Part shown: positions 3,904-31,681 of the stretch, in pieces
Layout: the number at the start of each line of letters is the position of its first letter
How positions within the stretch are numbered: position 1 is the first letter of the stretch
DNA from: a virus
Taxonomy: Duplodnaviria > Caudoviricetes
Length of the DNA: 64,000 bases
Virus record (IMG/VR): IMGVR_UViG_3300012007_000013
Span: 20,435-84,434 of that record
Reading direction: 5' to 3' (one strand)
Position numbers and translations under genes: made by a program
Notes under the pieces: model-generated
Seen by the model: only the letters and a program-made list of their open reading frames with translations
What the model was told of the DNA's origin: nothing
Database searches by the model: none

Positions 3904-6900
3904 ATGGCAGACAACGTCAGCGACCAGATAAAGAATTTCGACCAGTCGATTAAAGACGCAGATAAGTCGTTAAAAAATCTGTTGGATACATATAATAAGT
4001 TTGAAGCGAAGGCAAACGCTCCCACCGACAAGGGGTTTAAGATGCTGCACGACACCGCTACACGTGGAAGTGAACAATTTACGAGCGCACAAAACAAGGC
4101 GAAGAAATCGGTTGAGAAAACCACAAGTAGCATAAAAGAACAAAAAGGTTCTCTAGAATCTATGCTTCCCACCCTCCGCCGCCTTGCCTCCGCATTCGGT
4201 GTGGCGTTTTCTGTGCAGGGGCTTGTGAACTTCGGCAAGAAACTTGTCGAAACGAGAGGCGAGTTTGAGTTGCAGCAGGTCGCTATGCGTTCTATCTTGC
4301 AGAACAAGCAACTTGCCGACGAGATTTGGGACAAGACAATGCAGGCGGCATTGCAGTCTCCGTTCACCGCTATGCAGTTGACAAAGTACACGAAGCAGTT
4401 GGCTGCATACCGTATCGAGACAGACAAACTCTTCGACACAACCAAGCGACTTGCAGATGTGTCGGCTGGTCTTGGCGTCGATATGCAACGCCTTATCCTT
4501 GCCTATGGACAGGTGAAGGCTGCAAACTATCTACGTGCGTCTGAAATCCGTCAGTTCACAGAGGCGGGCGTGAACATTCTCGGTGAATTATCAACATACC
4601 TGTCAAAGACAAGAGGCGAAATGATTTCGACCGCACAGGTGATGGATATGGTTCAGAAGAGGATGGTGACTTTTGAGGACGTTGAAGCCATATTCAAGAG
4701 GATGACCGATGAAGGCGGCATATTCTATAATATGCAATACGTTCAGTCGCAGACAGTCAAAGGTCAGATAAATAAACTGCACGACGCCTACGACCAAATG
4801 TTGAACAGTATAGGTAAGGGGAATGAGGGCGTTTTAAAAGATGTCGTCGCTGCATTAAACAACATTGTACAAAACTGGAGATATTGGGCTGCTGCAATAA
4901 AGTCGATTGCATTTGGCACTATTATAGCAAGTCTCACAAAGTTGGGCGTTACACTAACAGGGGTTAATGTTGCGGGAATTGCAGCTGGCAAAGGAATGAC
5001 AAAACTTGCAGGTGGGGTCAAGGCTCTTGGTGTTGCTTTAAAAGGCAACTGGCTTACACTTGCAATAGGGGCTGTCGTATCTCTCGCAGCAGAGTTGTAC
5101 AACCTCAACAAGAGAATGAAAGCCGTCAATGCTGAAATTGACGAGCAGAATCTTAATTTATTTGAGACAAAGGAGAGACTTGAAGGATACCAGACGGCAA
5201 TAGAAAAGAACAACAAGGCGTTAGAGGGTAGCACTGGGAACGAAGAGAAACTAAAGAAGAAAAGAGAAGAGAACGCTGAAATACTCGCAAAACTAAAAAA
5301 TGATTACCCCCAACTTGCCGAGGGGATGGAGATGCAGAAGAACGGCGTTATTGACCTTACCGATGCCCTTAAAAAAGAGAATGAGGAGTTGGAAAGGCAA
5401 ATAACGCTTAATAGCTTGATGAAGCAGTCGTCAATATTTGACGAAAATTTGACGAAAGATGCGCAGGATTTGTCCAAGGCTTACATTAACCAACAGCAAC
5501 AAATTATTGCTGCGAGGGCACAGGCTCGCAGTTTAATGGTGCAATTAAAGCAAAGGGGGGCAGAAGGGTCTAATCAATATGACATATTAAAGCAAATTTC
5601 AGAGATAAATCCAGACGATTTGCAAAAGGCATACAAGAGGCTAATAGAATTAAGGCATCTCCTTTATAATGATATATATACACTTAATGGGAAACAACCT
5701 GCCCCAGGAACATACCAACCTCTTGAAGATTATTATAGAAATTATTTGAGAGGAATTTCTAATGTATCGGGTTCAGAGAAAGAACTAGGTGACGAGTTTA
5801 ATAAATTAGGTGAATATATTGGATATGAGTTGGAGAAAGGATTGGAGTCTGAATACAAAGAAGAGATAGAGAAATCAGGACTTTCTACGTTACAATGGTA
5901 CGCACTTAACGTAAACAAAGTACAAAAAGATATAGACGATGGTGTTGTAGATATTTATAGGTTTTTACGGGATTCGCTGGAGAAAAACGGACAGGCTCAA
6001 GGACCCGGTATGCAGACTTTTTGGAATAATATAGTAAAGACAAACTATATTGACCCTTATTTTAAGGCGTGGAAAGTCGGTATGGAAGAATTAGAAGCGG
6101 GTGGATGGCGTTTTCCAATGGCATTACCGACTGAGAGCGGTATGCCAAATATCTTTGCAACGCCCAAGAAAGGTGGTGATACTTCCGAAACCATAATAAA
6201 AGATGATGACGGCTCAAAAGCCAAGAAAAACGCTTCAAGGTTGATTTCTCTCATCCGTGAGATGCGTGCTGAATACGACAAGTTGTCGAAGTCGGCTTAC
6301 GGCTATGCAAAGAGCGAGGAGAAGGTAAGGACGAGTTTCGCAAAATCCTATGAGGCAATATTAAAAGAGGCTGGTGTACCGGAAAATTTTGACTTTAGTA
6401 CGAATGCTGGAGAAATTGCTGCATTAGAAAAGGTTCGTGATTATGTAAAAGGCAACGCTAAATTTGCAGAAGATGCGTGGAAAGATGTCCAAAAGGTTAT
6501 CGACCAATTAAAAACCGAATCCGAAATTGAAGTTCAAGTCCGCATCCGCGAGGACTTCGGTCGTCAGATGGAGGAGGCTTTCGGGAATTACGAACTCACG
6601 CTCGAGTTGCAAAAACTCAATCTTCCGAAAGGACTTGCCTCCGAGATGTGGGGTATCGAAGAAACGGACTTGCAAGACTTACGCGCAAGACTGAGTGAAA
6701 TGTATAACGGCCTCCGCGACGAGAATGGACAACTGTATACAGACGCCTTTAAAGATTACGAGAAATTCCTCAACAAGATTGACGAACTTGAAAGAAAGCA
6801 GCAGAGAGAGAGATTGAAGGACTATGCCAAATACCTCGAGACACAGTATAGCGACAGGGTGAAGATTGAGATGGAATACATTCAGAAACTCTCCCGTCTT

Positions 6901-8975: not shown

Positions 8976-9539
8976 ATGGCAGACATTAAAATTTTATCAC
9001 CGTTTATCCTCTCTTTTGAAGGTGGTTTTGTAAAACACCCGAATGACAAGGGGAAAGAAACAAACAAAGGGGTTACTATCGCCACTTGGAAGAAACAGGG
9101 ATACGACAAAGACGGCGACGGAGATATTGACGTTGACGACTTGAAAATGATTTCAGACGAGGATGCCGTGAACGTCATTCTCCGTCCTCATTATTGGAAC
9201 AGGTGGAAGGCCGACGAAATCAATAGCCAATCCATCGCTAATATTCTTGTGGATTGGGTCTGGGGTAGCGGCGTAAATGGAATAAAGATTCCACAGCAGT
9301 TGCTTTGTGTTAAAGCAGACGGTATTGTGGGACCGAAAACGTTGGCCGCGTTGAATGCAAAAGAGCCTCACGCATTCTTCAATCTTATCAAGAATAGGAG
9401 GGAGCAATTCTTCAATACAATAGTGAAAAACAATCCTAGTCAGAAGGTATTTTTGAAAGGATGGCTTCGCAGACTCAATTCGATAGGCTTTGGTTATCTG
9501 AAAGATAACAGGGGCAAAGTCACTCATTTCAAAGATTGA
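8976..9539 (+). CDS. endolysin, glycoside hydrolase family 108 with C-terminal peptidoglycan-binding domain
   Basis: N-terminal EGGF...D.G.ETNKGVT motif; DGIVGPKT and FLKGWLRR motifs. Confidence 0.85.
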   Translation: MADIKILSPFILSFEGGFVKHPNDKGKETNKGVTIATWKKQGYDKDGDGDIDVDDLKMISDEDAVNVILRPHYWNRWKADEINSQSIANILVDWVWGSGVNGIKIPQQLLCVKADGIVGPKTLAALNAKEPHAFFNLIKNRREQFFNTIVKNNPSQKVFLKGWLRRLNSIGFGYLKDNRGKVTHFKD

Positions 9540-9563
9540 TTTTTGTAAATTAAAAAATATTTG

Positions 9564-9571
9564 TATCTTTG
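9564..9571 (+). promoter_or_regulatory. Bacteroidota -7 promoter element upstream of the holin-like gene
   Basis: TATCTTTG in the AT-rich gap after the endolysin. Confidence 0.65.
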
Positions 9572-9613
9572 CACTCGTAAAAGTTAAAGTAAAACTTAAA
9601 TAAACATTACGCA

Positions 9614-10015
9614 ATGTGGTGGCAAACAATACTTATTGATGTTCTCTCGGTAACATCCATACTGAGCATAATCGCCGTTGTGCGATTTTGGAAGCAGAAC
9701 AAAAAACTCAAAGACAACGAGGTAAAAATCAACGACAGCGAGGTTGCTCAATCAAACGTCGAGGCACAGAAAGCCGAGATTGACCTCGCAAACAAGTACC
9801 GCGACGAGATGCTTAATATGGTGCAGATGGTGAAGGATGCGAACGAAAAGAATTTCACCAACCAAGACGAGATAATGCGTAGTCTCACACGGTTAGAAAC
9901 AAAGGTCGGCGATATAGAGAGTTATCTAAACGGACCCTACCACCAATACATTGCCGATAAGCAAAGCAGGTACAACCCGAATATCAAGCCAAATGAGGAT
10001 TCTTCAAAGTCATAG
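9614..10015 (+). CDS. holin-like membrane protein
   Basis: Single N-terminal TM segment plus coiled coil; lies between endolysin and spanin-like gene. Confidence 0.5.
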   Translation: MWWQTILIDVLSVTSILSIIAVVRFWKQNKKLKDNEVKINDSEVAQSNVEAQKAEIDLANKYRDEMLNMVQMVKDANEKNFTNQDEIMRSLTRLETKVGDIESYLNGPYHQYIADKQSRYNPNIKPNEDSSKS

Positions 10016-10439
10016 ATGTTTTAATTGGTTTGTAGCGGCACACGGAAAAGTCGCCGTGGCGGTAGCATTGATTTGTCTGACCGTCTCGGCGACGTCGTGC
10101 CGTTCCACAAACGAGATTGTCAAGGAAGTACCAGTCCACGATACGACATATATCACCAAAACGCAACGCGACAGCACTTACATTGACAGGTGGCATACAG
10201 AATACGTCAAGGGCGATACCGTTTTTGTCACGAACAATCAAATAATAGTCAAATACAGAACCGTCTCTGATACAGCATATAAATACGTAGAAAAGCCAGT
10301 CGAGGTGGTTGTCAATCAAATAAAAGAGGTAGGCAGGCCGCTCCGTTGGTGGCAAAAAACGATGATGTGGTGCGGCGTAGGCTTCATCCTCGTGCTTATA
10401 GGTTTCGGTATGTCACTCTATGTAAAACTGAAAGGGTAA
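9993..10439 (+). CDS. unimolecular spanin-like lipoprotein
   Basis: Signal peptide with lipobox (SATS-C), beta-rich middle, C-terminal TM helix; adjacent to lysis genes. Confidence 0.6.
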   Translation: MRILQSHRCFNWFVAAHGKVAVAVALICLTVSATSCRSTNEIVKEVPVHDTTYITKTQRDSTYIDRWHTEYVKGDTVFVTNNQIIVKYRTVSDTAYKYVEKPVEVVVNQIKEVGRPLRWWQKTMMWCGVGFILVLIGFGMSLYVKLKG

Positions 10440-10443
10440 CGTT

Positions 10444-11052
10444 ATGAAGGAGAGAGTGCTTACAGTTTTGGTGCCTATTAAGGATAGCGATGCCACGGTT
10501 GTGACGTCACTCCCCGCCGTAACACCCGACAATATTAACGTCATATACAAACACGAGGGTGTCTACAAACGCATTTGGTTGAATCCAGCCACAAACCAAT
10601 ATGAGTATCACGAGGTTATAGATAGAGAGTTCCCTTATCTCGGCAAACCACTCGAGATATTCGATTTCACATACGACGCCACTCGAATGGGTACTGCCCC
10701 GACAATTTCCGCCCAAAATATAATGTGGTATGCAGACCGTGACGCAAACAACAAAGAAGTCACGCTTGAACGCCTTTGGTCTCAGGAATGCCACGTTGTG
10801 TTTAACGGTGAGAACTATTACTTGAAACAGATACCAACGGCGGGCAAATCGAACGAGGATGCCCGATATAAATATGACATAGACTTTGTCAACGAGCGCG
10901 TCGTCCTAGAACAGGTATACATTTATGATGTCGTTCAGCCGTTTATAACAGAGCGACCCGTGTCAGAATCGACGAAATTCTCGTTTTTCGGTGACATCAA
11001 TGAGTTGATAAAGAGGATTAATACATCTCTACTTAGAAGCAAACTTGCTTAA
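10444..11052 (+). CDS. tail hub/Tal-like protein, N-terminal part (ends at in-frame TAA)
   Basis: Same frame as 11317..14733; only TAA 11050-11052 interrupts the frame. Confidence 0.55.
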   Translation: MKERVLTVLVPIKDSDATVVTSLPAVTPDNINVIYKHEGVYKRIWLNPATNQYEYHEVIDREFPYLGKPLEIFDFTYDATRMGTAPTISAQNIMWYADRDANNKEVTLERLWSQECHVVFNGENYYLKQIPTAGKSNEDARYKYDIDFVNERVVLEQVYIYDVVQPFITERPVSESTKFSFFGDINELIKRINTSLLRSKLA

Positions 11053-14733: not shown

Positions 14734-15995
14734 GGTAACTATATATAACTTTACACACAAAAAAAATAAACTAAAATTTTGTCAGTTTAGTTTTTATTCG
14801 TATCTTTGCAGTGATGATTAAGACATACAAATATAGACTACACCCTAACAATGAGCAAATTACTTTCTTCGAGAAGTCGTTTGGTTGCGTTAGGTTTGTC
14901 TATAATTGGGCACTTAATCAGCGTATCGAGGCATATCAGAAAGACGGAACCCGCATTTCGTGGGTCGATAATTGCAAGCGACTGACCGAACTCAAAAAGC
15001 AGGAAGAGACGAAATGGCTGTGCGAGGTCGCAAACCAATCACTGCAATCATCCATACGTAATATGGATAGTGCTTTCACACGCTTCTTTCGAGAAAAGAA
15101 AGGCTTTCCGAAGTTCCATTCAAAGAAACGTGGAAGATTCTCTTTCCAGTTGGTGCAGGGTGTATCTATTGACTTCAATACACATAAGGTAAAACTGCCG
15201 AAGGTTGGCGAAGTGAAATTCGGAAAGAACAAAGAGTTTGTCGGCAAGATTGGCACTTGCACGGTTTCAAAGACACCGACGGGAAAATACTACATTTCAA
15301 TACTTGTAGACGACGGCAAGCCTATGCCAGAAAAAGCACCGATTACAGCTGACACCGCCGTCGGCATAGATGTTGGCATCAAGGATTTCGCCGTGCTATC
15401 TAACGGTCAAGTTTATTCTAACCCCAAATATTTGGAGAAAGATGAAAAGCGGTTAAAAGTATTACAAAGACGTCTTTCGAGAAAGCAGAAAGACAGCAAG
15501 CGTAGCGAAAGTGCGAGATTGGCGGTAGCAAGGCAGCACGAGAAGATACGCAACAGACGTGTCAATTTCATCCACCAAGTCACTTCGAGGATTGTCCGCG
15601 AAAACCAAACGGTAATCATCGAGGACTTGAATGTGGACGGTATGCTTAAAAACCACAATCTCGCAAAGCATATAGCGTCGGCGTCGTGGTCGGAGTTCTT
15701 CCGTCAGTTGCAGTACAAATGCGACTGGCAAGGTAAAAACCTCATACGCATCGGGCGTTTCGAGCCAAGTTCAAAGATGTGTCTGTGTGGGTTCATCAAC
15801 AAGGATTTGACATTGAAAGACCGAGAGTGGGATTGCCCACAATGTGGTAGGCACAACGACCGCGACTTGCTTGCAGCAGTGAACATAAAGAGGTTCGGCT
15901 TGCAGAAGCAGAATCTCATAGGAGAAATATCACCCGTGGTGAACGGGGCAGAGGACGTGGAGCCGCTGACATTGGTCGGGGCTGTGAAGCGTCAA
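14725..15995 (+). mobile_element. tnpB-only IS200/IS605-family element (no tnpA)
   Basis: Preceded by TTGAT (14720-14724); ends in TCAA (15992-15995) after a structured 3' region typical of omega-RNA; boundaries inferred. Confidence 0.55.
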
Positions 15996-16010
15996 TATAT
16001 CAAAGTGTAA
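14814..16010 (+). CDS. tnpB: TnpB RNA-guided endonuclease
   Basis: N-terminal HTH (YKYRLHP...FGCVRFVYN), RuvC motifs GIDVG, IEDL and DRD..AAVNI, zinc finger C..CG...CPQCG; catalytic residues intact. Confidence 0.93.
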   Translation: MIKTYKYRLHPNNEQITFFEKSFGCVRFVYNWALNQRIEAYQKDGTRISWVDNCKRLTELKKQEETKWLCEVANQSLQSSIRNMDSAFTRFFREKKGFPKFHSKKRGRFSFQLVQGVSIDFNTHKVKLPKVGEVKFGKNKEFVGKIGTCTVSKTPTGKYYISILVDDGKPMPEKAPITADTAVGIDVGIKDFAVLSNGQVYSNPKYLEKDEKRLKVLQRRLSRKQKDSKRSESARLAVARQHEKIRNRRVNFIHQVTSRIVRENQTVIIEDLNVDGMLKNHNLAKHIASASWSEFFRQLQYKCDWQGKNLIRIGRFEPSSKMCLCGFINKDLTLKDREWDCPQCGRHNDRDLLAAVNIKRFGLQKQNLIGEISPVVNGAEDVEPLTLVGAVKRQYIKV

Positions 16011-19581: not shown

Positions 19582-20109
19582 ATGGGTAGAAGTTCACAAT
19601 ATAATCACTATATGCAGAGGGTCGATAGTCCCGGGTACGCCACCATTGACATAGAGGAGGAGTTTCCCGGTCTGCTATACTCGAGTGCGAAAGGTATTTA
19701 TGACATAGGTAAACCAAAGAATATCTACACAGAGCAGTATGCAGATAGCGACAGAACTCGTGTGTATATTCCAATAGAATACCTTAATGGTCAGTTAGTG
19801 CATAACACATCGTTGATTGCTAATGAATCGACTACTGTAGAAATGACTTTCCTTGTAGTTGGAGATGCTCATGCTCGACGTGACACCATAACTGCCTTTG
19901 AGGATTATGTTCGCACAGGAATTCATACATATTATGATACTGCTCGTCAGATGGAGTTTGAGTTTTTCGTTTCAGACGACATAAAGGTAAGCGATGAAAA
20001 ATGGCACGGAAGTCAACCATACGTAGAACTGACAGTACCGTTGCAGAATATCAACGGGAAAACTCGACATATAGAGCCGTCTGCGATTATACAGACAAGA
20101 ACATCGTAG
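19582..20109 (+). CDS. putative distal-tail-like protein, paralogue A
   Basis: 175 aa; strong similarity to 25140..25649 (KNIYTE.YADSD..RVY.P, KVSDEKWHG..PY). Confidence 0.45.
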   Translation: MGRSSQYNHYMQRVDSPGYATIDIEEEFPGLLYSSAKGIYDIGKPKNIYTEQYADSDRTRVYIPIEYLNGQLVHNTSLIANESTTVEMTFLVVGDAHARRDTITAFEDYVRTGIHTYYDTARQMEFEFFVSDDIKVSDEKWHGSQPYVELTVPLQNINGKTRHIEPSAIIQTRTS

Positions 20110-20118
20110 AGTAAAATA

Positions 20119-20472
20119 CTAGTTCGTAATTCTCTTTTTTACAGGCGGTCGCTTCTCAAGAGTTGCGACCGCTTCCACTTCTGTACGGAGGAATCCGACT
20201 TTGTGGTTGTTTATCGTGTGCGTTTTTACACCGTGTTTTGCGAGCACTTTCTGCATTGCCTCACGCGAGCCTATGTTAAGGATACGCATTGCATCGTCGT
20301 AAGTCACGAAAGAGTCTTCCCTAAAGTAGCCTTTGTTTTCGGCGTTGACGCGACCGAGCATATAACCTATCTGCTCGTCGTTGCATTCGCCGTTCTCCAT
20401 TCTGTGGAGGATGTCCTTTAAATATCGTATCGCCTCTTTCATAAGTGGCGATTTTACTTTTCCGCCTTCCAT
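20119..20472 (-). CDS. putative HTH DNA-binding protein
   Basis: C-terminal VTYDDAMRILNIGSREAMQKVL resembles an excisionase/MerR-type HTH; basic tail. Confidence 0.45.
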   Translation of the reverse strand: MEGGKVKSPLMKEAIRYLKDILHRMENGECNDEQIGYMLGRVNAENKGYFREDSFVTYDDAMRILNIGSREAMQKVLAKHGVKTHTINNHKVGFLRTEVEAVATLEKRPPVKKRITN

Positions 20473-20828
20473 ATCTTCTTTAATCTTTGTACTCTTACGA
20501 AGTGGCGTATAGCGAGAGTTGTCGTGGTGAGAAGACCTATGGCGATAATAGTTGGTGGTATATATACAGTCCAATTAATCGGCAGAAAATCAAATATATT
20601 GTTTGTGCAGACTAACGTATCAGAAATCAATATACCATAAGCAGTATAATTAATAAACCGACAATGGTACACGCCTTGTTTAGATATGCACAAGCAAGTG
20701 CATAGTTCAAAAAGCAAATAGTATGTTTGCGACCATATATTTATGTCAAAAAGCATTTCAGTAACATAGCAAAGTGTTAAATATATTGCTACGCTGACAA
20801 CGCTCATCCTTATTGTAAATTTACTCAT
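20454..20828 (-). CDS. multi-pass membrane protein
   Basis: 124 aa with 3-4 hydrophobic segments. Confidence 0.6.
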   Translation of the reverse strand: MSKFTIRMSVVSVAIYLTLCYVTEMLFDINIWSQTYYLLFELCTCLCISKQGVYHCRFINYTAYGILISDTLVCTNNIFDFLPINWTVYIPPTIIAIGLLTTTTLAIRHFVRVQRLKKIWKAEK

Positions 20829-20944
20829 TTTTTCTTTGATTTTGCTTTGAATGTTGCGACATTATGTAATAATGAGTTCCTTGCCGTCCTGTTCGGTCTT
20901 ACTTTCGCTTTCGCCTTGACTTTCACTCTTCTACGTCTTGCCAT
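20825..20944 (-). CDS. 39-aa highly basic peptide
   Basis: MARRRRVKVKAKAKVRPNRTARNSLLHNVATFKAKSKKK; TGA overlaps the next ATG; absent from the ORF track. Confidence 0.55.
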   Translation of the reverse strand: MARRRRVKVKAKAKVRPNRTARNSLLHNVATFKAKSKKK

Positions 20945-21163
20945 AATTTATTCAATTTTTCAACATTAACGAAAAAGGCAATGTTTTATTGCCGAATGTC
21001 ATAGGAAAATGTCAAAAGAATTTGCAAATTCTATTTTGGTATTGCAAATCACTCGTTTACGTATAGAAAAGAATTCAGTAGTTCTTTGTGCATTCCTGTC
21101 TTACCTTTGCATCCGTGACGTCACACAAACAAACGGATTTATTAACCTTAAAACTCGAAAACA

Positions 21164-22081
21164 ATGAGTGAAACTATCGTGGTTCCCGACAATGGGAACA
21201 ACAACATGAACAACGCTCTGCCTTGGATGCTCGCCAACAACGGCTATGGCAATGGCGGTTTCCTTGGCGGCGGTTTCGGCACGGGCTTCTTCGGCGGTAT
21301 CCTCGGCGGTATCCTCACCAACTGGCTCGGCGGAAATGGCTGGGGCTTTGGCGGAAATGGTATGAACGGTGCTGGTGCGGCTGCCGCCCTCGGCGCTCAG
21401 GCTACCGCAAACAACAACACTGACCTTCTGATGAACGCCATCACCAACAGCGGCGAGCGTCAGCACGAGGCTGTACAGACCCTCAGCACTATGCTCGGTC
21501 AGGACTTTAACCTTGTGAACCAAGGTGTGCAGACTATGCAGTCCGCCCTCGCGACCATCGCTGCAAATCAGGGCATGAACACTATGCAGGTGGTGAACGC
21601 CATCCAGCAGGGCAATATGACGCTCGCACAGTCTATGTGTGACTGCTGCTGCCAGACGCAGAAGCAGATTATGCAGCAGGGCTACGAGAACCAAATCGCC
21701 ACCCTGAATCAGACCAACAGCCTGAACACTACAATCAACGGAAACGGTCAGCGCACTGTCGACGCTATCGCCGACCTCAAGACCTCGATGATTTCTGAGT
21801 TCTGTGCCGCTCGTGAGCGCGACATGCAGGCTAAGATTGACACGCAGGCCGAAATCATTACGCAGTTGCGTAACGCAGCCGACAATGCCAATCAAACCAA
21901 CCAAATCGCTGCCATGATTGCCCCGTTGCAGGCTAAACTGGTCGCCATCGAGAACCGTCAGCCCAACACTGTCAGCGTGCCTTACCCCCAGCTTTCTGTC
22001 GTGAACACCACGCCTTATATGGGCGGTTTCTATGGCAACGGTTGGTATGGTAACGGATTCGGTAACAGCATCACGTTCTAA
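21164..22081 (+). CDS. Gly/Asn/Gln-rich protein with glycine zipper, coiled coil and CDCCC cluster
   Basis: 305 aa, strong codon bias, promoter TACCTTTG at 21102. Confidence 0.8.
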   Translation: MSETIVVPDNGNNNMNNALPWMLANNGYGNGGFLGGGFGTGFFGGILGGILTNWLGGNGWGFGGNGMNGAGAAAALGAQATANNNTDLLMNAITNSGERQHEAVQTLSTMLGQDFNLVNQGVQTMQSALATIAANQGMNTMQVVNAIQQGNMTLAQSMCDCCCQTQKQIMQQGYENQIATLNQTNSLNTTINGNGQRTVDAIADLKTSMISEFCAARERDMQAKIDTQAEIITQLRNAADNANQTNQIAAMIAPLQAKLVAIENRQPNTVSVPYPQLSVVNTTPYMGGFYGNGWYGNGFGNSITF

Positions 22082-22109
22082 ACGCAATAACGGATAAGGA
22101 GGTAAAAGC

Positions 22110-22445
22110 ATGAGTTGTAATCCCAATATTACAGTAAATGCAGGCGGAATACCCGTATTGCAGTCCACAAACATCAGCGTAGGTACTGAGAGTGTCAATA
22201 TCGGACTTGGTTTCCGTAACATTCGCCCGATGGGCAAGTTCATCGTCGAGTTGTCGGATGTCATTCCTGCCGATGCAACGACCACGTTGCCTGTGACGCT
22301 TACCCTCAACGGAACGACGAGACCTCTGACCTTGCCAAACTCCGTACCGGTAACTGTCGCCGAATTGACAAGTGTCAGTGCCTTTGAGGTGTACAACAAC
22401 CGTTTCAAGGGTTACTTGATGCTGATGTCACGCACGACCGAATAA
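22110..22445 (+). CDS. small beta-sandwich-like hypothetical protein
   Basis: 111 aa, V/T/P-rich; TAAGGAGGT upstream. Confidence 0.7.
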   Translation: MSCNPNITVNAGGIPVLQSTNISVGTESVNIGLGFRNIRPMGKFIVELSDVIPADATTTLPVTLTLNGTTRPLTLPNSVPVTVAELTSVSAFEVYNNRFKGYLMLMSRTTE

Positions 22446-23088
22446 TGCTATCTCGGATTGGGTAGCGAGTTCTTTGACATATTGACAAGTTTTCGTAGTC
22501 TTCGAGGTACATCCATTTGAACCCACCACCTTGGGAGTACAATCCTCGACAACACTGGCTGATGCTTCCTTGGCAAACACCAGTGTGTTTGGATGCTTCA
22601 ACGATACTTACGTATTTCGCTACAAAAGCATTCTCAATCGTCAACTGGATTACTTTCCTTCGTTGGTACGCAGTTTGATGGATAGTCGTTGCCATACGTT
22701 CGTTGTGTCGGCCATAGTTGCAGTTATAAGATTGAGTACACCACTCAAGATTTTCTGAATTATTATTCTCGGGATTTTCGTCCTTGTGATTTATATAAGG
22801 CAGGTTATCTGGGTTTTGTATAAAAGAATTTGCAACAAGTCGATGAATCAAAAATTGTTTACGATGTTTTTCTCCGTCTGATAAGACGACAGATAGGTAT
22901 ACACTCGACTTCCTCGGTTTGATTAGTTGTGGTTTTCTGAAACAGACTCTATCCCCACAAAGATAGGGTGCAGAGAAAGACACTATTCTTCCAAGGTTAG
23001 AAACGGCATATCGGCCTTCGTAACCGACTACATCTCGCCAATCCTCTCCCTCCAATTTAATGGAATTGATGAACTCTTCGTTTGTCAT
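22405..23088 (-). CDS. NUMOD4-HNH-NUMOD1 homing endonuclease
   Basis: EDWRDVVGYEGRYAVSNLGR, IHRLVA..F, INHKDEN..NN...NLEW, FVAKYVSIVEAS; ATG at 23088. Confidence 0.88.
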   Translation of the reverse strand: MTNEEFINSIKLEGEDWRDVVGYEGRYAVSNLGRIVSFSAPYLCGDRVCFRKPQLIKPRKSSVYLSVVLSDGEKHRKQFLIHRLVANSFIQNPDNLPYINHKDENPENNNSENLEWCTQSYNCNYGRHNERMATTIHQTAYQRRKVIQLTIENAFVAKYVSIVEASKHTGVCQGSISQCCRGLYSQGGGFKWMYLEDYENLSICQRTRYPIRDSIIRSCVTSASSNP

Positions 23089-23247
23089 TGCCAATCGTTT
23101 TAAGTTACGCCAACGATTTGAAAAAGAGGGAAAAGGGCGTTGGCTTACCCCTTGTCAATAGGTCATGACTCCTACCTATTCCCAATTGCAAAGATACGAA
23201 TAAAAATTGAATTAACAACAACTTTTAACAAAAAAAACGAAGAAACT

Positions 23248-23790
23248 ATGTTTGGAGCGTTAAAGACAGGTTCGCTGATATACGTTTTGTACAAAGGCGA
23301 TGCTCCCTACCTCAAAATGGGAGAATTGGTGGCAAATCCAGTGCTGCGTCCGAAGCAGAATCCCCAACTTATGCCGAATCCATTGCAGTTTGAACAAGTG
23401 CTTGATTTGGTGGTCAAGGTCGGGGACGACACTAAAAATTTCACCAATGTACCACCCAATGCGTCGTTCTGTGATGCAGGTTCTGGGTACATCATATCCG
23501 ATGACAAGAATGAAATAACCAACGAAGTGGAGAAATTTGGTGCATACAGTCAGAACATATTGAACGCCATACCATTCCACAAAAAAGTCGTTTCATCCGT
23601 CAAGCAGATGATGATAGACCTCAATCCAAGCCTACAGAAGGAGGCGCAGAGGGATGATGAGATGTCCAAGATGAAGTCAGAAATGACCGAGTTGCGGAAC
23701 ACCATCGGTGAGTTGGCAAACCTGTTGAAAGGCGCTATGACACCTGCTGCCCCAAGCATGGGTTCTTCGTTAATTAGAAAGGAGCAGTAA
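23248..23790 (+). CDS. hypothetical protein with C-terminal coiled coil
   Basis: 180 aa from ATG 23248; cassette member. Confidence 0.7.
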   Translation: MFGALKTGSLIYVLYKGDAPYLKMGELVANPVLRPKQNPQLMPNPLQFEQVLDLVVKVGDDTKNFTNVPPNASFCDAGSGYIISDDKNEITNEVEKFGAYSQNILNAIPFHKKVVSSVKQMMIDLNPSLQKEAQRDDEMSKMKSEMTELRNTIGELANLLKGAMTPAAPSMGSSLIRKEQ

Positions 23791-23792
23791 AA

Positions 23793-24041
23793 ATGGCTTA
23801 CGTTATAATCCAGAAAAAGGACAAAAAGAAGATGTCCGCAATGGTCGAGGACATTCTCTACACCGCCGGTGAACTGATGCACTGCGTCGAGGAGATGCGT
23901 GAGGACGGATACGGCGACCGCTACTACGGAGACCGCTACGGCGACCGTTACGGTATGGGAATGCGCGACGGTGGTCGCTACGGCAACCGCGACTGGGACG
24001 ACGACGAGATGAACGAGCGTCGCCGTTACCCCAGATACTAA
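23793..24041 (+). CDS. small YGDR-repeat low-complexity protein
   Basis: 82 aa; YGDRYYGDRYGDRYG...RYGNR. Confidence 0.7.
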   Translation: MAYVIIQKKDKKKMSAMVEDILYTAGELMHCVEEMREDGYGDRYYGDRYGDRYGMGMRDGGRYGNRDWDDDEMNERRRYPRY

Positions 24042-24055
24042 ACGTTCCAAACGTG

Positions 24056-24100
24056 GGAGGGGAGCGATGAGGCTTGTTCCCTTTGCCCCCTCCTTTTTTA
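24056..24100 (+). terminator. intrinsic terminator
   Basis: GGAGGG...CCCTCC stem followed by a T run. Confidence 0.55.
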
Positions 24101-24122
24101 AAATTATTAAATAAAAAAAACA

Positions 24123-24542
24123 ATGAGTTTACCTTTAGACTATATGGATGAAATTCCGAGAAGTATGCGCCGCTATCTTGACTACTACGGATGGCATTTC
24201 AACAAGCCTGCATACGAATATGCCGCATCATTGATGTGGAAAGAAGACAAGGACGGAAAAAAGACAAAAGTCGAGCCTGTCAAAAAGGAGGAGGTCGACA
24301 AAATCCTCAAAGATAACAATGTCGAAATCGAAAACAAGGGCAATTGGGATTATATGTACTGGGCAATGCAGTGCAAGGCAGACCTTATGCCCGAGGCTAT
24401 CGAGGACGAAAAGCACATGGCAAAATACGTCAAGATGATGACAGACGACCCCGATGTCCCCGATGACGTCACATTCCGTATTTTCTATGCCAAGTGTGTT
24501 GCCGCAGGCAGAGGCATACCTTTTGAAGAATTTCTTGATTGA
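24123..24542 (+). CDS. hypothetical protein (YGWHFNK motif)
   Basis: 139 aa; cassette member. Confidence 0.7.
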   Translation: MSLPLDYMDEIPRSMRRYLDYYGWHFNKPAYEYAASLMWKEDKDGKKTKVEPVKKEEVDKILKDNNVEIENKGNWDYMYWAMQCKADLMPEAIEDEKHMAKYVKMMTDDPDVPDDVTFRIFYAKCVAAGRGIPFEEFLD

Positions 24543-24544
24543 TT

Positions 24545-24961
24545 ATGCTACGCCAGCGTATATACATACCGCGTTACCATTGGGAGGTTGTCGTCTATTA
24601 TGAGAGCGACTACCGTGATGCGTCGTACATACTCAGGGAACTTGACGAGACGGGTGTGGACAATGATACTTATTGGAAGGCGGCAAGGAATCTCGAGGCT
24701 GGGCTTACTGATACGGGGCTGACGTACTCCAATATGGAAGACGGGAAGTCTATTATCGTTTTGTCCAAGGCGTCGTCTAAAGCGGAGTTTGCCAATACTT
24801 GGTTCCACGAACTGATACATTGTGCAAACCATATAGCGTTAGCGAACGGACTTGACCCGATGGGCGAACCGATAGCGTATGTCGGCGGAGAACTCGCACG
24901 TTCTATGCAGCCGATTGCAGCACGTCTTATGTGTCCAACCTGCGAAAAAAGAAAGATATGA
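24545..24961 (+). CDS. HEXXH zinc-metallopeptidase-like protein
   Basis: WFHELIHC motif plus downstream E.IAY..G; C-terminal CPTC. Confidence 0.6.
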   Translation: MLRQRIYIPRYHWEVVVYYESDYRDASYILRELDETGVDNDTYWKAARNLEAGLTDTGLTYSNMEDGKSIIVLSKASSKAEFANTWFHELIHCANHIALANGLDPMGEPIAYVGGELARSMQPIAARLMCPTCEKRKI

Positions 24962-25139
24962 AACGGAAAAAAGAGAAATATATACCCTTAGAAAAGGTGT
25001 TGCAATATGAATGTCTGACTGACATTCTGATGTTTGCACACCTTTTTTATTTGGAGTAGCGTACATTTTCAAAAAAAGTTGTATTTTTGTATTGGAAAAG
25101 GAAAACCTTTTTCTGTGTATAACTTTTAATATCAATAAT

Positions 25140-25649
25140 ATGGCTTACGGGGAATATACGCACAAGATGCAAAGAATAGATAAAACTGGTTACAACGTCA
25201 TTGATATTGAGGATGAGTTCCAAGGTTTAATCTACCTCAATGCAAAAGGGATGAATGATGTCGGCAAGGCGAAGAATATCTATACGGAGACTTATGCTGA
25301 CAGTGACGATTTGCGTGTCTACGTTCCCGAAAGCGATACGGTTTTTGAAAACGGCAGGGAAGTCGATTCATATACCAATGAAGCGACAGTTATCACTATG
25401 AGTTTCGCTGTCGTGGGTGATGCCTATATGCGCCAATTGGTGATAGACAGGTTTGAAAGTTATCTTCGGCACGGCGTGCATCTGTATAAGGATAATGCAA
25501 GAAATAGAGAGTTCCGTTTTGTCGTCCAAGATGAGATAAAAGTGAGCGACGAAAAATGGCACGGCAATACGCCCTACATTATCTTGGAAGTTCCTATGCA
25601 GAACTTGAACGGCAAGACCAGACTGTTACAATACTCAGAAACCTTTTGA
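25140..25649 (+). CDS. putative distal-tail-like protein, paralogue B
   Basis: Paralogue of 19582..20109. Confidence 0.45.
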   Translation: MAYGEYTHKMQRIDKTGYNVIDIEDEFQGLIYLNAKGMNDVGKAKNIYTETYADSDDLRVYVPESDTVFENGREVDSYTNEATVITMSFAVVGDAYMRQLVIDRFESYLRHGVHLYKDNARNREFRFVVQDEIKVSDEKWHGNTPYIILEVPMQNLNGKTRLLQYSETF

Positions 25650-30365: not shown

Positions 30366-31121
30366 TTAGAAGTTGTCACTTTCTACCTCAAATGTATCTC
30401 CGCTGTGAGCCACTGACACTTTCACGAGAGGCAGTGCGTCTTGAACAGACTTCAATGCAAAGTCCTCGTTTATGTTTTGGTGACTGAGATGTATTAGGAT
30501 TATCTGCTTTGTGCTGATTGACGAGTTGCGTCTGCAGAAGTCGATGCAGTCTTCAAGTCCCATGTGGTTCTCGGGGTGGCTCCGGCTCTGTTCCGCGTTG
30601 ACAAAGTTGTCGATGAGCGTGTCGTCATCGTGGTTGCATTCGACCATTATGCAGTCGATGTCCTTGAAGTTGTACTGACACCCCATAGCGTCCGTGACGA
30701 ACACAATGCGTTCCTTTGTCGGCGTTACTATCAGAAAGCCGTAATTTGGCACGTTGTGGGCGACTTCGAACGGCTGGACGACAAATCCTCCGACGAACGT
30801 CTTTTGAGCCATAGGAAGCGGCTTTATGCCCTTAATCGAGCCTTCTTTTAGCAGTTCCTCGTAGACTTTCTCGCCGCAGAACACTGGGATACCTCGTCTG
30901 ATAAACTCTTTTGCGGTGGACTTGTTTAAATGGTCTGTGTGCCTTGGTTTTATTCACCAGTGCGAGGCGATACAGCCCCGCACCGATGCAAAGTCCTCCA
31001 TATTTAATGTATAATCCATCATTTTCATTCCGAGTTCCACAATCAAACATTGATTGTTAGAGCGTAGCAAAAATCCGTTTCCTGTGCTACCAGTGTTTAC
31101 TACCTTGATACTTGTTCCCAT
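30366..31121 (-). CDS. MBL-fold metallo-hydrolase (putative exonuclease) with in-frame TGA in the HxHxDH motif
   Basis: ATG 31121 MGTSIKVVNTGSTGNG...; SH[W*IKP]RHTDH; downstream H.V, FVTD, ECNHD, HM and LIHLS motifs intact. Confidence 0.75.
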
Positions 31122-31681
31122 ATAAATCCTCCCGCTTGTTTTCTGATGTGTCCTGGGCAGAACTCTTCTTTACCTGCCACCTGTTTTATATTTCTTGCAC
31201 ATACACCGGTTGCCCTACTCGCTTCCGCTGCATTTTCATACATTGCGATAAAGTTGCCTTGCAAGTCCTTTTGAATGATTTTTTGCGGTCTTACATACTT
31301 ATTGTAATAGTTCATTCCTTTTACGTCCCTCGAATCAATATCTTTTTTATAGTGTTCTTCTGCGGATACAAGTTCAAGATTTTCAACGCAATTATTTTGC
31401 TTATTATGGTCTTTATGGTGAATGTGCCATTTGTGTCCTCTTGGTATTTCTCCAACAAAATGTTCATAGACTAATCTGTGTATCCTTGTGTATTTAACCT
31501 TCCCCATCCATTGAAGAATCACGGAAAAATATCCGCCTTTTGCATTTACATTTGGCAAGACACGCCATTCTGTGATTCTTTGAGTGGGGTTCCTTCTTTT
31601 TTTACACGATAGAAGAGTGCCTTTATCGCCTATCCGATAGACACCTTCAAACCCTTTAATATCTACAAATTTTTCTTCCAT
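31100..31681 (-). CDS. NUMOD4-HNH-NUMOD1 homing endonuclease
   Basis: FVDIKGFEGVYRIGDKG, IHRLVYEHF, IHHKDHNKQNNCVENLE, YENAAEASR. Confidence 0.88.
   Translation of the reverse strand: MEEKFVDIKGFEGVYRIGDKGTLLSCKKRRNPTQRITEWRVLPNVNAKGGYFSVILQWMGKVKYTRIHRLVYEHFVGEIPRGHKWHIHHKDHNKQNNCVENLELVSAEEHYKKDIDSRDVKGMNYYNKYVRPQKIIQKDLQGNFIAMYENAAEASRATGVCARNIKQVAGKEEFCPGHIRKQAGGFIWEQVSR

Follow-up and report, generated by a model that had tools for sequence, protein, structure and literature searches.

A portable six-gene late operon of gut Bacteroidales phages, possibly encoding a rod-plus-cap fibre with its own metallopeptidase

Background

The described systems closest to the gene cassette considered here are, first, phage fibres made of trimeric coiled coils that carry a terminal beta domain, namely the phi29 head fibre gp8.5, T4 fibritin and the head fibres gp21/gp29 of phiCrAss001, which are encoded by late genes and combine an elongated helical shaft with a small beta domain, and, second, the fibre modules lambda stf-tfa and T4 gp37-gp38/gp57A, in which a fibre gene is followed by small helper genes and which are portable across unrelated phages. 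Another layout, consisting of a Gly-rich hydrophobic segment, a coiled coil, cysteines and an aromatic end, is found in class I fusion proteins and spanins, and the H protein of phiX174, of ~300 amino acids (aa), begins with a glycine zipper that is followed by a Q/N-rich coiled coil. The cassette examined in this work occupies positions 20119-24961 of a 64,000-nt window, that is, the whole stretch analysed, which corresponds to bases 20435-84434 of the 84.4-kb IMG/VR virus record IMGVR_UViG_3300012007_000013 (Duplodnaviria; Caudoviricetes); all coordinates below refer to this window.

In a preliminary description, this DNA was viewed as a nine-gene unit, with three genes running leftward and six rightward from a divergent control region, and all nine listed open reading frames (ORFs) are indeed present with the motifs ascribed to them. 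The six rightward genes are denoted here, in the 5' to 3' order, g305, g111, g180, g82, g139 and g140. Our firm result is that these six genes constitute a portable, self-contained late operon that is shared by very different gut Bacteroidales phages; the most economical reading of their products is an elongated structure that self-assembles and brings its own protease.

Results

To delineate the cassette, 80 IMG/VR loci were fetched around relatives of g305, and the genes in these loci were detected with tblastn and, later, by all-against-all clustering. In most of the loci, the order g305, g111, g180, small charged protein, DUF7841 protein and HExxH protein recurs on one strand; since the identities to the window are only 14-68%, this gene order has been kept over a long divergence. 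By tblastn, 71 loci have g111, 57 have the HExxH gene, 56 the DUF7841 gene and 55 g180, and these genes always follow g305 on its own strand with their order unchanged. Clustering raises the counts to 61-69 loci per family and places in slot four, nearly always, a small charged low-complexity protein that is too divergent for BLAST. Thus, a search for co-conservation, the check suggested in the preliminary description, finds the six rightward genes together across many genomes, and this part of the nine-gene proposal stands; however, none of the 80 loci matches the leftward trio in sequence, and the trio has to be separated from the conserved unit.

Among the phages that carry the cassette are podophages of the crAss-like group, temperate siphophages and a cultured Bacteroides phage, C3_41T2LP, in which WLZ21182 and its neighbours are the homologues of g305 and g111. 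In cr116_1 (Steigviridae), a relative of phiCrAss001 from the same subfamily, all rightward gene slots are filled, as judged by matching gene sizes, and the cassette is inserted between the L,D-carboxypeptidase gene and the homologues of the gp31/major capsid protein (MCP) genes; phiCrAss001 itself lacks the cassette. Two members of the Suoliviridae, cr4_1 and cr52_1, carry a 305-aa gene, a 111-aa-type gene and a 188-aa gene, the third slot being assigned by size in both and all slots being so assigned in cr52_1. Matches in bacterial genome bins come mostly from Bacteroidales (Phocaeicola dorei, Prevotellaceae, Paludibacteraceae, Parabacteroides leei).

In all genomes examined, the cassette is located in late, virion or lysis operons. 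Specifically, crAss-like phages carry it immediately before the lysis genes or in the interval that separates these from the gp31/MCP homologues. In one group of siphophages with an integrase gene, it is flanked on one side by an MCP-like gene, the product of which has a delta-domain-like N-terminus, and on the other by the genes of the head-tail region and the tail tube. Inspection of the sequences indicates that the neighbouring lysis cassettes hold their own candidates for a lipoprotein with a C-terminal transmembrane (TM) segment; with such spanin-like candidates already in place, the cassette is not simply a missing spanin. In the window, late genes run rightward up to ~25.6 kb, minus-strand genes follow beyond, and the cassette forms the end of the late block. 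The late genes include a 1,686-aa ORF of tape-measure size, followed by an endolysin-like gene (8976-9539; phrog_315) from which the cassette is 11 kb away, and tail-fibre-like genes that extend to 19402, ahead of the cassette.

A reduced sub-module that lacks the rod gene is present in the crAss-like phage cr8_1 (NC_055877, locus L111) at 4461-5408, after the gene for a 1,063-aa hypothetical protein. It consists of a 68-aa piece that matches the C-terminal coiled coil of g180, a 56-aa D/E/R/Y-rich protein ending in GRGRYGRY, and DUF7841.

The conclusion of the preliminary description that the cassette belongs to no named system holds inasmuch as searches of Pfam, PHROG, NCBIfam, PDB and PADLOC yielded no characterised homologue of any of the six proteins. 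In particular, the NCBIfam search of the cassette proteins returned no match, and PADLOC, applied to 10 proteins, returned only one chance-level match (JetA, E 0.015, 11.9 bits). Profile searches of the PDB gave only chance matches or coiled-coil noise for g305, g139 and g140 and only coiled-coil noise for g180. A search of the literature on DUF7841, on C3_41T2LP and on crAss-like phages combined with the glycine zipper found nothing, and the GenBank phage collection contains no DNA near-identical to the window.

The first protein of the operon, g305 (21164-22081, plus strand; 305 aa; phrog_16490), starts with an N/G-rich segment and contains GGGFGTGFFGGILGGILTNWLGG, a CDCCC cluster at residues 159-163, and a G/Y/N/F tail that ends in F. 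The family alignment reveals an acidic N-terminal motif with an invariant P8 and a near-invariant D9, which is followed by ~70 uncharged Gly/Phe/Leu/Trp residues, the "glycine-zipper" head; residues 1-98 include neither Lys nor Arg, and the Kyte-Doolittle hydropathy of the zipper, 1.44, is marginal for a membrane span. Within the cysteine cluster, C162 and C163 are invariant, a PNTVxVxYP motif is found further on, and most members of the family end with a Gly/aromatic tail. The AlphaFold2 (AF2) model places helices at residues 100-135, 152-191 and 196-264, in keeping with a Q/N-rich helical region of three to five segments; because its predicted local distance difference test score (pLDDT) is only 41, this monomer model was left out of the fold searches. 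More than 6,497 metagenomic homologues of g305 were detected at E<=0.001, none of them named, and some homologues have been labelled "viral fiber" or "spike" by database annotators. The rod is a mosaic: within one pair of relatives, the identity of individual segments ranges from 14% to 100%, and the identity of one relative drops from 85-97% over residues 1-160 to 16% over residues 196-265. Judging from these alignments, rod segments have been exchanged between relatives, as is the case in fibre genes.

The second protein, g111 (22110-22445, plus strand; 111 aa; phrog_31654), had been described as a beta protein, and the AF2 model bears this out as an all-beta sandwich with a pLDDT of 84. Its best match in the PDB, a weak one but the only one to stand apart from the rest, is bead III of the tail fibre gp47 of Pa193 (Z 5.4, root-mean-square deviation 3.7 Å over 94 residues), a trimeric fibre with bead domains (PMC11456595). 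In BFVD, beyond its own family, g111 matches parts of 400-950-aa phage proteins with E values from 2e-4 to 1e-2, several of which are named tail fiber, receptor binding protein or trimeric autotransporter adhesin (TAA) stalk; a fold search of the ESM Atlas retrieved only the unnamed family of g111 itself. An exhaustive profile search yielded 240 clusters, nearly all of which are standalone proteins of ~110 aa. A BLAST comparison of the phiCrAss001 head fibre gp29 with the related loci gave no match to any of their ORFs, those of the g111 family included.

The only long protein among the 240 clusters is a 3,735-aa metagenomic fn3/He_PIG repeat protein (P0140), in which 17 stretches match positions 30-92, the core region, of the g111 profile; both this protein and a single, unexplained 303-aa fused form of g111 are uninformative.

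The aromatic tail of g305 and the g111 gene are linked in their distribution. Among the loci with enough downstream sequence, both are present in 66 and neither is present in five (L007, L051, L061, L063 and L068); the Gly/aromatic tail and g111 have been gained and lost together. Since L007, which lacks g111, retains g180, the coupling of the tail is specific to g111.

A disulfide between N-terminal cysteines of g111 and the cysteines of g305 was considered and rejected: the N-terminus of g111 carries 0-4 Cys depending on the lineage, ~40% of the g111 proteins have no Cys, and the Cys counts of the two proteins are uncorrelated overall (Spearman 0.10). One clade (L071, L072, L078, L079, L082 and L085) is the only one with extra Cys in both proteins; its cap starts with MNCCNCNCN, and the Gly-rich head of its rod has 3-4 additional Cys, e.g. 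GNCGGCGCP. Because no correlation exists across all loci, these paired cysteines may reflect cross-linking or metal binding that is specific to this lineage.

For g180 (plus strand; phrog_28898), the preliminary description had the right gene and the start has now been moved to the ATG at 23248, inside the ORF 23140-23790, in accordance with the family alignment in which 34 relatives begin at the aligned Met; the gene thus spans 23248-23790. The protein comprises an N-terminal beta domain, an LNPxYA motif and a C-terminal coiled coil. The 82-aa g82 (23793-24041, plus strand) carries YGDRYYGDRYGDRYG and combines an N-terminal helix with a tail rich in Arg, Asp, Glu, Gly, Tyr and Met; its relatives often end in RDSRGRY[MIL]. 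The 139-aa g139 (24123-24542, plus strand; phrog_38431) is a member of DUF7841, with 68 bits against PF25223 of Pfam (cut-off 25.2; E 1e-18), and Y18, A34, M38, D87, D109 and D111 are invariant in its family. Feature searches of the ESM Atlas with g139 and g180 gave only unnamed viral clusters or nothing. The sole fused form of DUF7841 is a single fusion with PPDK_N on a 3-kb contig that is possibly chimeric.

The last gene of the operon, g140 (24539/24545-24961, plus strand), probably starts at the ATG at 24545. The HEXXH motif recognised in the preliminary description proved to be part of an invariant site: H90, E91, H94 and E110 (HExxH...E; numbering from the TTG at 24539) are conserved without exception in 35 sequences, as are Y114 and G117, and many members have a CxxC at the C-terminus. 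With a conserved HExxH and a downstream Glu, g140 qualifies, as far as its sequence can tell, as a zincin of the gluzincin type, and we refer to it as a predicted mini-gluzincin metallopeptidase. The g140 protein of the window has no match at E<=0.1 in Pfam, including Peptidase_M78, SprT-like and PolyVal. Among the 35 relatives, weak matches to Peptidase_M78 were obtained for 8 (best E 0.0019) and to SprT-like for 6 (best E 0.015), PolyVal was matched by none, and none reached a Pfam gathering score; the homologue in C3_41T2LP is annotated as a PolyVal metallopeptidase.

One gene within the operon had been overlooked, namely, that for a 229-aa HNH homing endonuclease with a NUMOD4-HNH_3-NUMOD1 architecture in Pfam (22405-23094, minus strand; phrog_59, E 8e-45). 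The NUMOD4 (37.8 bits) and NUMOD1 (23.0 bits) domains pass their cut-offs, and HNH_3 scores 22.8 bits against a cut-off of 24.8. The gene is placed between g111 and g180 and overlaps the stop of g111 by 41 nt; at least seven related loci (L010, L022, L038, L040, L047, L055 and L073) carry an HNH gene at this position and in this orientation. Given that endonucleases share one slot across loci, the g111-g180 junction looks like a recurrent, preferred homing site, and the endonuclease looks like an intruder rather than a part of the system. A second member of the same endonuclease cluster is encoded at 31100-31681 of the window.

On the other side of the divergent intergenic region (20945-21163), three genes run on the minus strand: that for a 39-aa Lys/Arg peptide (20825-20944), which is stop/start-coupled (ATGA) to the gene of a 124-aa multi-pass membrane protein (20454-20828), and that for a helix-turn-helix (HTH) protein of the excisionase/MerR-like type (20119-20574; phrog_9452, E 4e-4, in the HTH part only), which likely starts at the ATG at 20472 or 20442, giving 107-117 aa. 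About 31 loci encode, just upstream of the operon, a 115-155-aa multi-pass TM protein (clusters c7 and c13) and then a 91-108-aa excisionase-like HTH protein (c8 and c9), and in most relatives these genes are co-directional with the operon. The divergent control region, which had been taken for a feature of the system, is peculiar to this phage. Homology of the TM and HTH proteins of the window to these upstream families is not supported, the hhalign probabilities being 0.5% and 8%, respectively. In 6 of 30 loci (L020, L027, L033, L034, L056 and L070), a 35-43-aa K/R-rich ORF is located directly upstream of the TM gene; several of these ORFs carry an RRYxxGGK-like motif, and in place and composition they resemble the 39-aa peptide of the window. 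The upstream architecture is thus a recurrent one, and we regard the leftward trio as possibly analogous neighbours rather than as established members of the system.

In the intergenic region, 54 nt ahead of the g305 ATG, the letters TAccTTTG (21102-21109) match a -7 element of the Bacteroides type, an 8-mer pattern that is common by chance, and a hairpin is present at 20977-20993; another hairpin, with a T-rich tail, is located 3' of g111. The GC-richness and codon bias noted earlier for the first rightward genes are apparent from the GC content at third codon positions (GC3), which is 0.71 in g305 and, in g82, 0.76, the highest among 129 ORFs, as compared to a genome median of 0.51; the value of g305 also ranks near the top of these ORFs. 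Other ORFs with high GC3 occupy the position of head genes, where a 417-aa ORF has no match in Pfam or PHROG.

The region as a whole is bracketed by two paralogous genes in direct orientation, at 19582-20109 (175 aa) and 25092-25649 (185 aa), which are 55% identical and have no relatives in Pfam, PHROG, the GenBank phages or the 80 related loci; the pair may be a trace of the entry of the block into this genome. Elsewhere in the window, lysis genes (8976-11052) appear directly 3' of the tape-measure gene, a protein weakly related to the lipoprotein cluster c17, a cluster with a u-spanin-like layout in other loci, is encoded at ~10050-10430, and a 399-aa ORF is located among the tail-fibre-like genes (14811-16010).

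Discussion

What kind of structure could this operon build? The self-assembling structure with its own protease that was put forward in the preliminary description is still the most economical reading, and we favour an elongated structure because of the helical rod, the joint gain and loss of the g305 tail and g111, and the invariant HExxH...E site. More specifically, and tentatively, with a probability of roughly 0.35, we envisage a late-made rod-plus-cap fibre with its assembly factors. In this scenario, the six-gene late operon would build an elongated protein assembly, in which g305 would form a rod of coiled-coil segments whose Gly/aromatic ends are of low complexity, and the g111 bead would dock on the C-terminal Gly/aromatic tail of the rod. 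The g180 protein, the small Arg/Asp/Gly/Tyr-rich protein and DUF7841 could serve as accessory or assembly subunits, and the g140 mini-gluzincin would process a component of the assembly. The rod would be made abundantly alongside the virion genes, as would, probably, the small protein. As for the final location, an accessory fibre on the virion surface, at the head or neck, appears slightly preferable to a membrane-attached one. The data show the co-conservation and order of the genes, the g111 fold, the paired gain and loss of the g305 tail and g111, the intact protease site and the codon bias; how the subunits oligomerise and touch one another, what the protease cleaves and where the assembly resides are what we infer in this scheme. 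The helical rod with a bead as its cap is the best supported physical model, and a place on the virion is favoured by the late structural context, the mosaicism of the shaft and the weakly fibre-like fold of the cap.

Several considerations weigh against a virion fibre. The conserved N-terminus of g305 is common to podophages and siphophages with unrelated tails, with no shared docking site evident, and its uncharged or acidic first 98 residues, together with the marginal zipper, look membrane-active rather than like a capsid anchor. The g111 protein is among the better conserved members of the cassette, unlike typical receptor-binding tips, and the Z score that relates it to the Pa193 bead is lower than unrelated models often reach according to the fold tool's own calibration. 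Furthermore, Q/N and R/G/Y low-complexity sequences are unusual in virion proteins, and the monomer model of g305 is poor.

A tentative alternative, which we place on the unlikely side, is that the cassette specifies a late structure of a hitherto undescribed kind: a keratin- or fusion-protein-like coiled-coil polymer, capped by a bead protein, embedded with an R/G/Y-rich matrix protein and matured by the protease. Unlike an ordinary virion fibre, such a polymer would act in or on the infected Bacteroidales cell, either in the cytoplasm or at the membrane.

It is unlikely, in our estimate, that the cassette performs a late envelope function, with the glycine-zipper head of g305 inserted in the inner membrane and the complex aiding lysis or egress, or blocking superinfection late in infection. 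In one version, the acidic N-terminal tail would face outward and the rod would stay cytoplasmic; in the other, g305 would resemble a fusion protein or a spanin, with two membrane-active ends. Such a function would fit the location of the cassette directly beside holin-like, endolysin and lipoprotein genes in many loci, the multi-pass membrane protein that is often encoded just upstream, the stretch before residue 99 that is free of Lys and Arg, and the conservation of the g305 N-terminus across phages with unrelated virions; the layout of g305 (Gly-rich hydrophobic head, rod, Cys cluster and aromatic tail) is also similar to that of class I fusion proteins and spanins. However, none of the six proteins has a signal peptide or a lipobox, and five of them look soluble. 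The role of a spanin is already filled by the lipoprotein-plus-C-terminal-TM candidates of the adjoining lysis cassettes, and the cassette of the temperate siphophages lies between head and tail genes, away from the lysis genes, just as in the window the endolysin is distant and follows the tape measure. The hydrophobicity of the zipper is, again, marginal: spanins are recognised by an N-terminal signal-anchor TM segment or a lipobox that puts the coiled coil into the periplasm, and g305 has no lipobox, no Lys or Arg among its first 98 residues and only a marginal hydrophobic peak, which makes it less probable that g305 is a spanin, not that it acts on membranes.

An intracellular scaffold, in which g305 would form a network or condensate of the intermediate-filament or keratin type within an R/G/Y-rich matrix, with the protease as a maturation switch, strikes us as quite improbable. 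Such a scaffold would suit the three-part make-up of g305, with its Gly/aromatic head, coiled-coil rod and Gly/aromatic tail, and the small proteins with tails rich in R/D/G/Y, as well as the predicted solubility of all partners and the strong codon bias. Moreover, the module serves phages whose virions are unrelated, so that its components probably bind chiefly to one another. Against this, the case is built from composition, there is no homology to cytoskeletal or phase-separating proteins, the shuffling of rod segments is easier to explain for an exposed structure, and such scaffolds have no known precedent in phages.

Packaging and ejection of the proteins, with g305 as a pilot or conduit like the H protein of phiX174, and with the small basic or acidic protein and DUF7841 as internal cargo processed by the metallopeptidase, as proposed for PolyVal metallopeptidases (MPTases), appears very improbable. 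The architecture of g305 is analogous to that of H, the g140 homologue of C3_41T2LP bears the PolyVal annotation, and the cassette is placed among late genes; on the other hand, g305 matches no pilot protein in PHROGs or PDB, siphophages already have a tape measure for that role, and g140 falls below every Pfam threshold, that for PolyVal included. Finally, a defence or anti-defence island carried as a moron, a notion prompted by the accessory distribution (absent from phiCrAss001 and present at the same site in cr116_1 of the same subfamily) and by the nearby protease and HTH genes, is hardly credible given the lack of a PADLOC match, the strictly late-operon placement with a fixed gene order, and the abundance of structural-type proteins, which is atypical of such islands.

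Whatever its location, the structure merits attention since the cassette is found in several families of Crassvirales, which are among the most abundant human gut viruses, as well as in unrelated siphophages of Bacteroidales, and since it is experimentally accessible in the cultured phage C3_41T2LP, which grows on Bacteroides uniformis (host strain MB20-41). If the virion fibre is the true reading, gut phages would possess in this cassette a module for adhesion or stability that many of them share and can exchange; if the structure acts in the cell, this would be a new late function specific to the infection of Bacteroidales. New here are the fold of g111, the coupling between the tail and the cap, the mosaicism of the shaft, the invariant protease site, the head-proximal position in temperate siphophages and the homing endonuclease.

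The comparison with known systems can now be resumed. With phiX174 H there is no detectable similarity, and the cassette resides in tailed phages, within an operon of six genes. Compared to spanins and class I fusion proteins, the cassette is devoid of the signal-anchor charge pattern and of a lipoprotein partner inside it, and the adjacency to lysis genes typical of spanins is frequent for the cassette but absent in this window. With ImmA/IrrE (Peptidase_M78), SprT-like proteins and the PolyVal MPTase, g140 shares the HExxH and downstream Glu within ~130 aa; unlike ImmA/IrrE, it is not accompanied by a cognate Xre-type repressor, and no member of its family attains a Pfam gathering score. Like lambda stf-tfa and T4 gp37-gp38/gp57A, the cassette is a portable module of unrelated phages that would place a fibre gene ahead of small helper genes, but there is no homology between them; in the cassette, the part of the helpers would fall to DUF7841, a low-complexity protein and a gluzincin, and the cap is conserved rather than hypervariable.

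A parallel is also provided by the coiled-coil fibres phi29 gp8.5, T4 fibritin and phiCrAss001 gp21/gp29, which share with the cassette not only the late genes and the combination, predicted for the cassette, of an elongated helical shaft with a small beta domain but also the accessory distribution and the mosaic shafts. In crAss-like genomes, the cassette even occupies the region in which phiCrAss001 carries its head fibre gp29 (PMC10172136). There are also differences: there is no sequence similarity, the beta domain of the cassette is a separate polypeptide, and the place in the virion is, for the cassette, a proposal. The rod itself combines a Gly-zipper head with a CCC cluster and a Gly/aromatic tail, and to the rod and the cap the cassette adds four conserved genes, including that of a metalloprotease.

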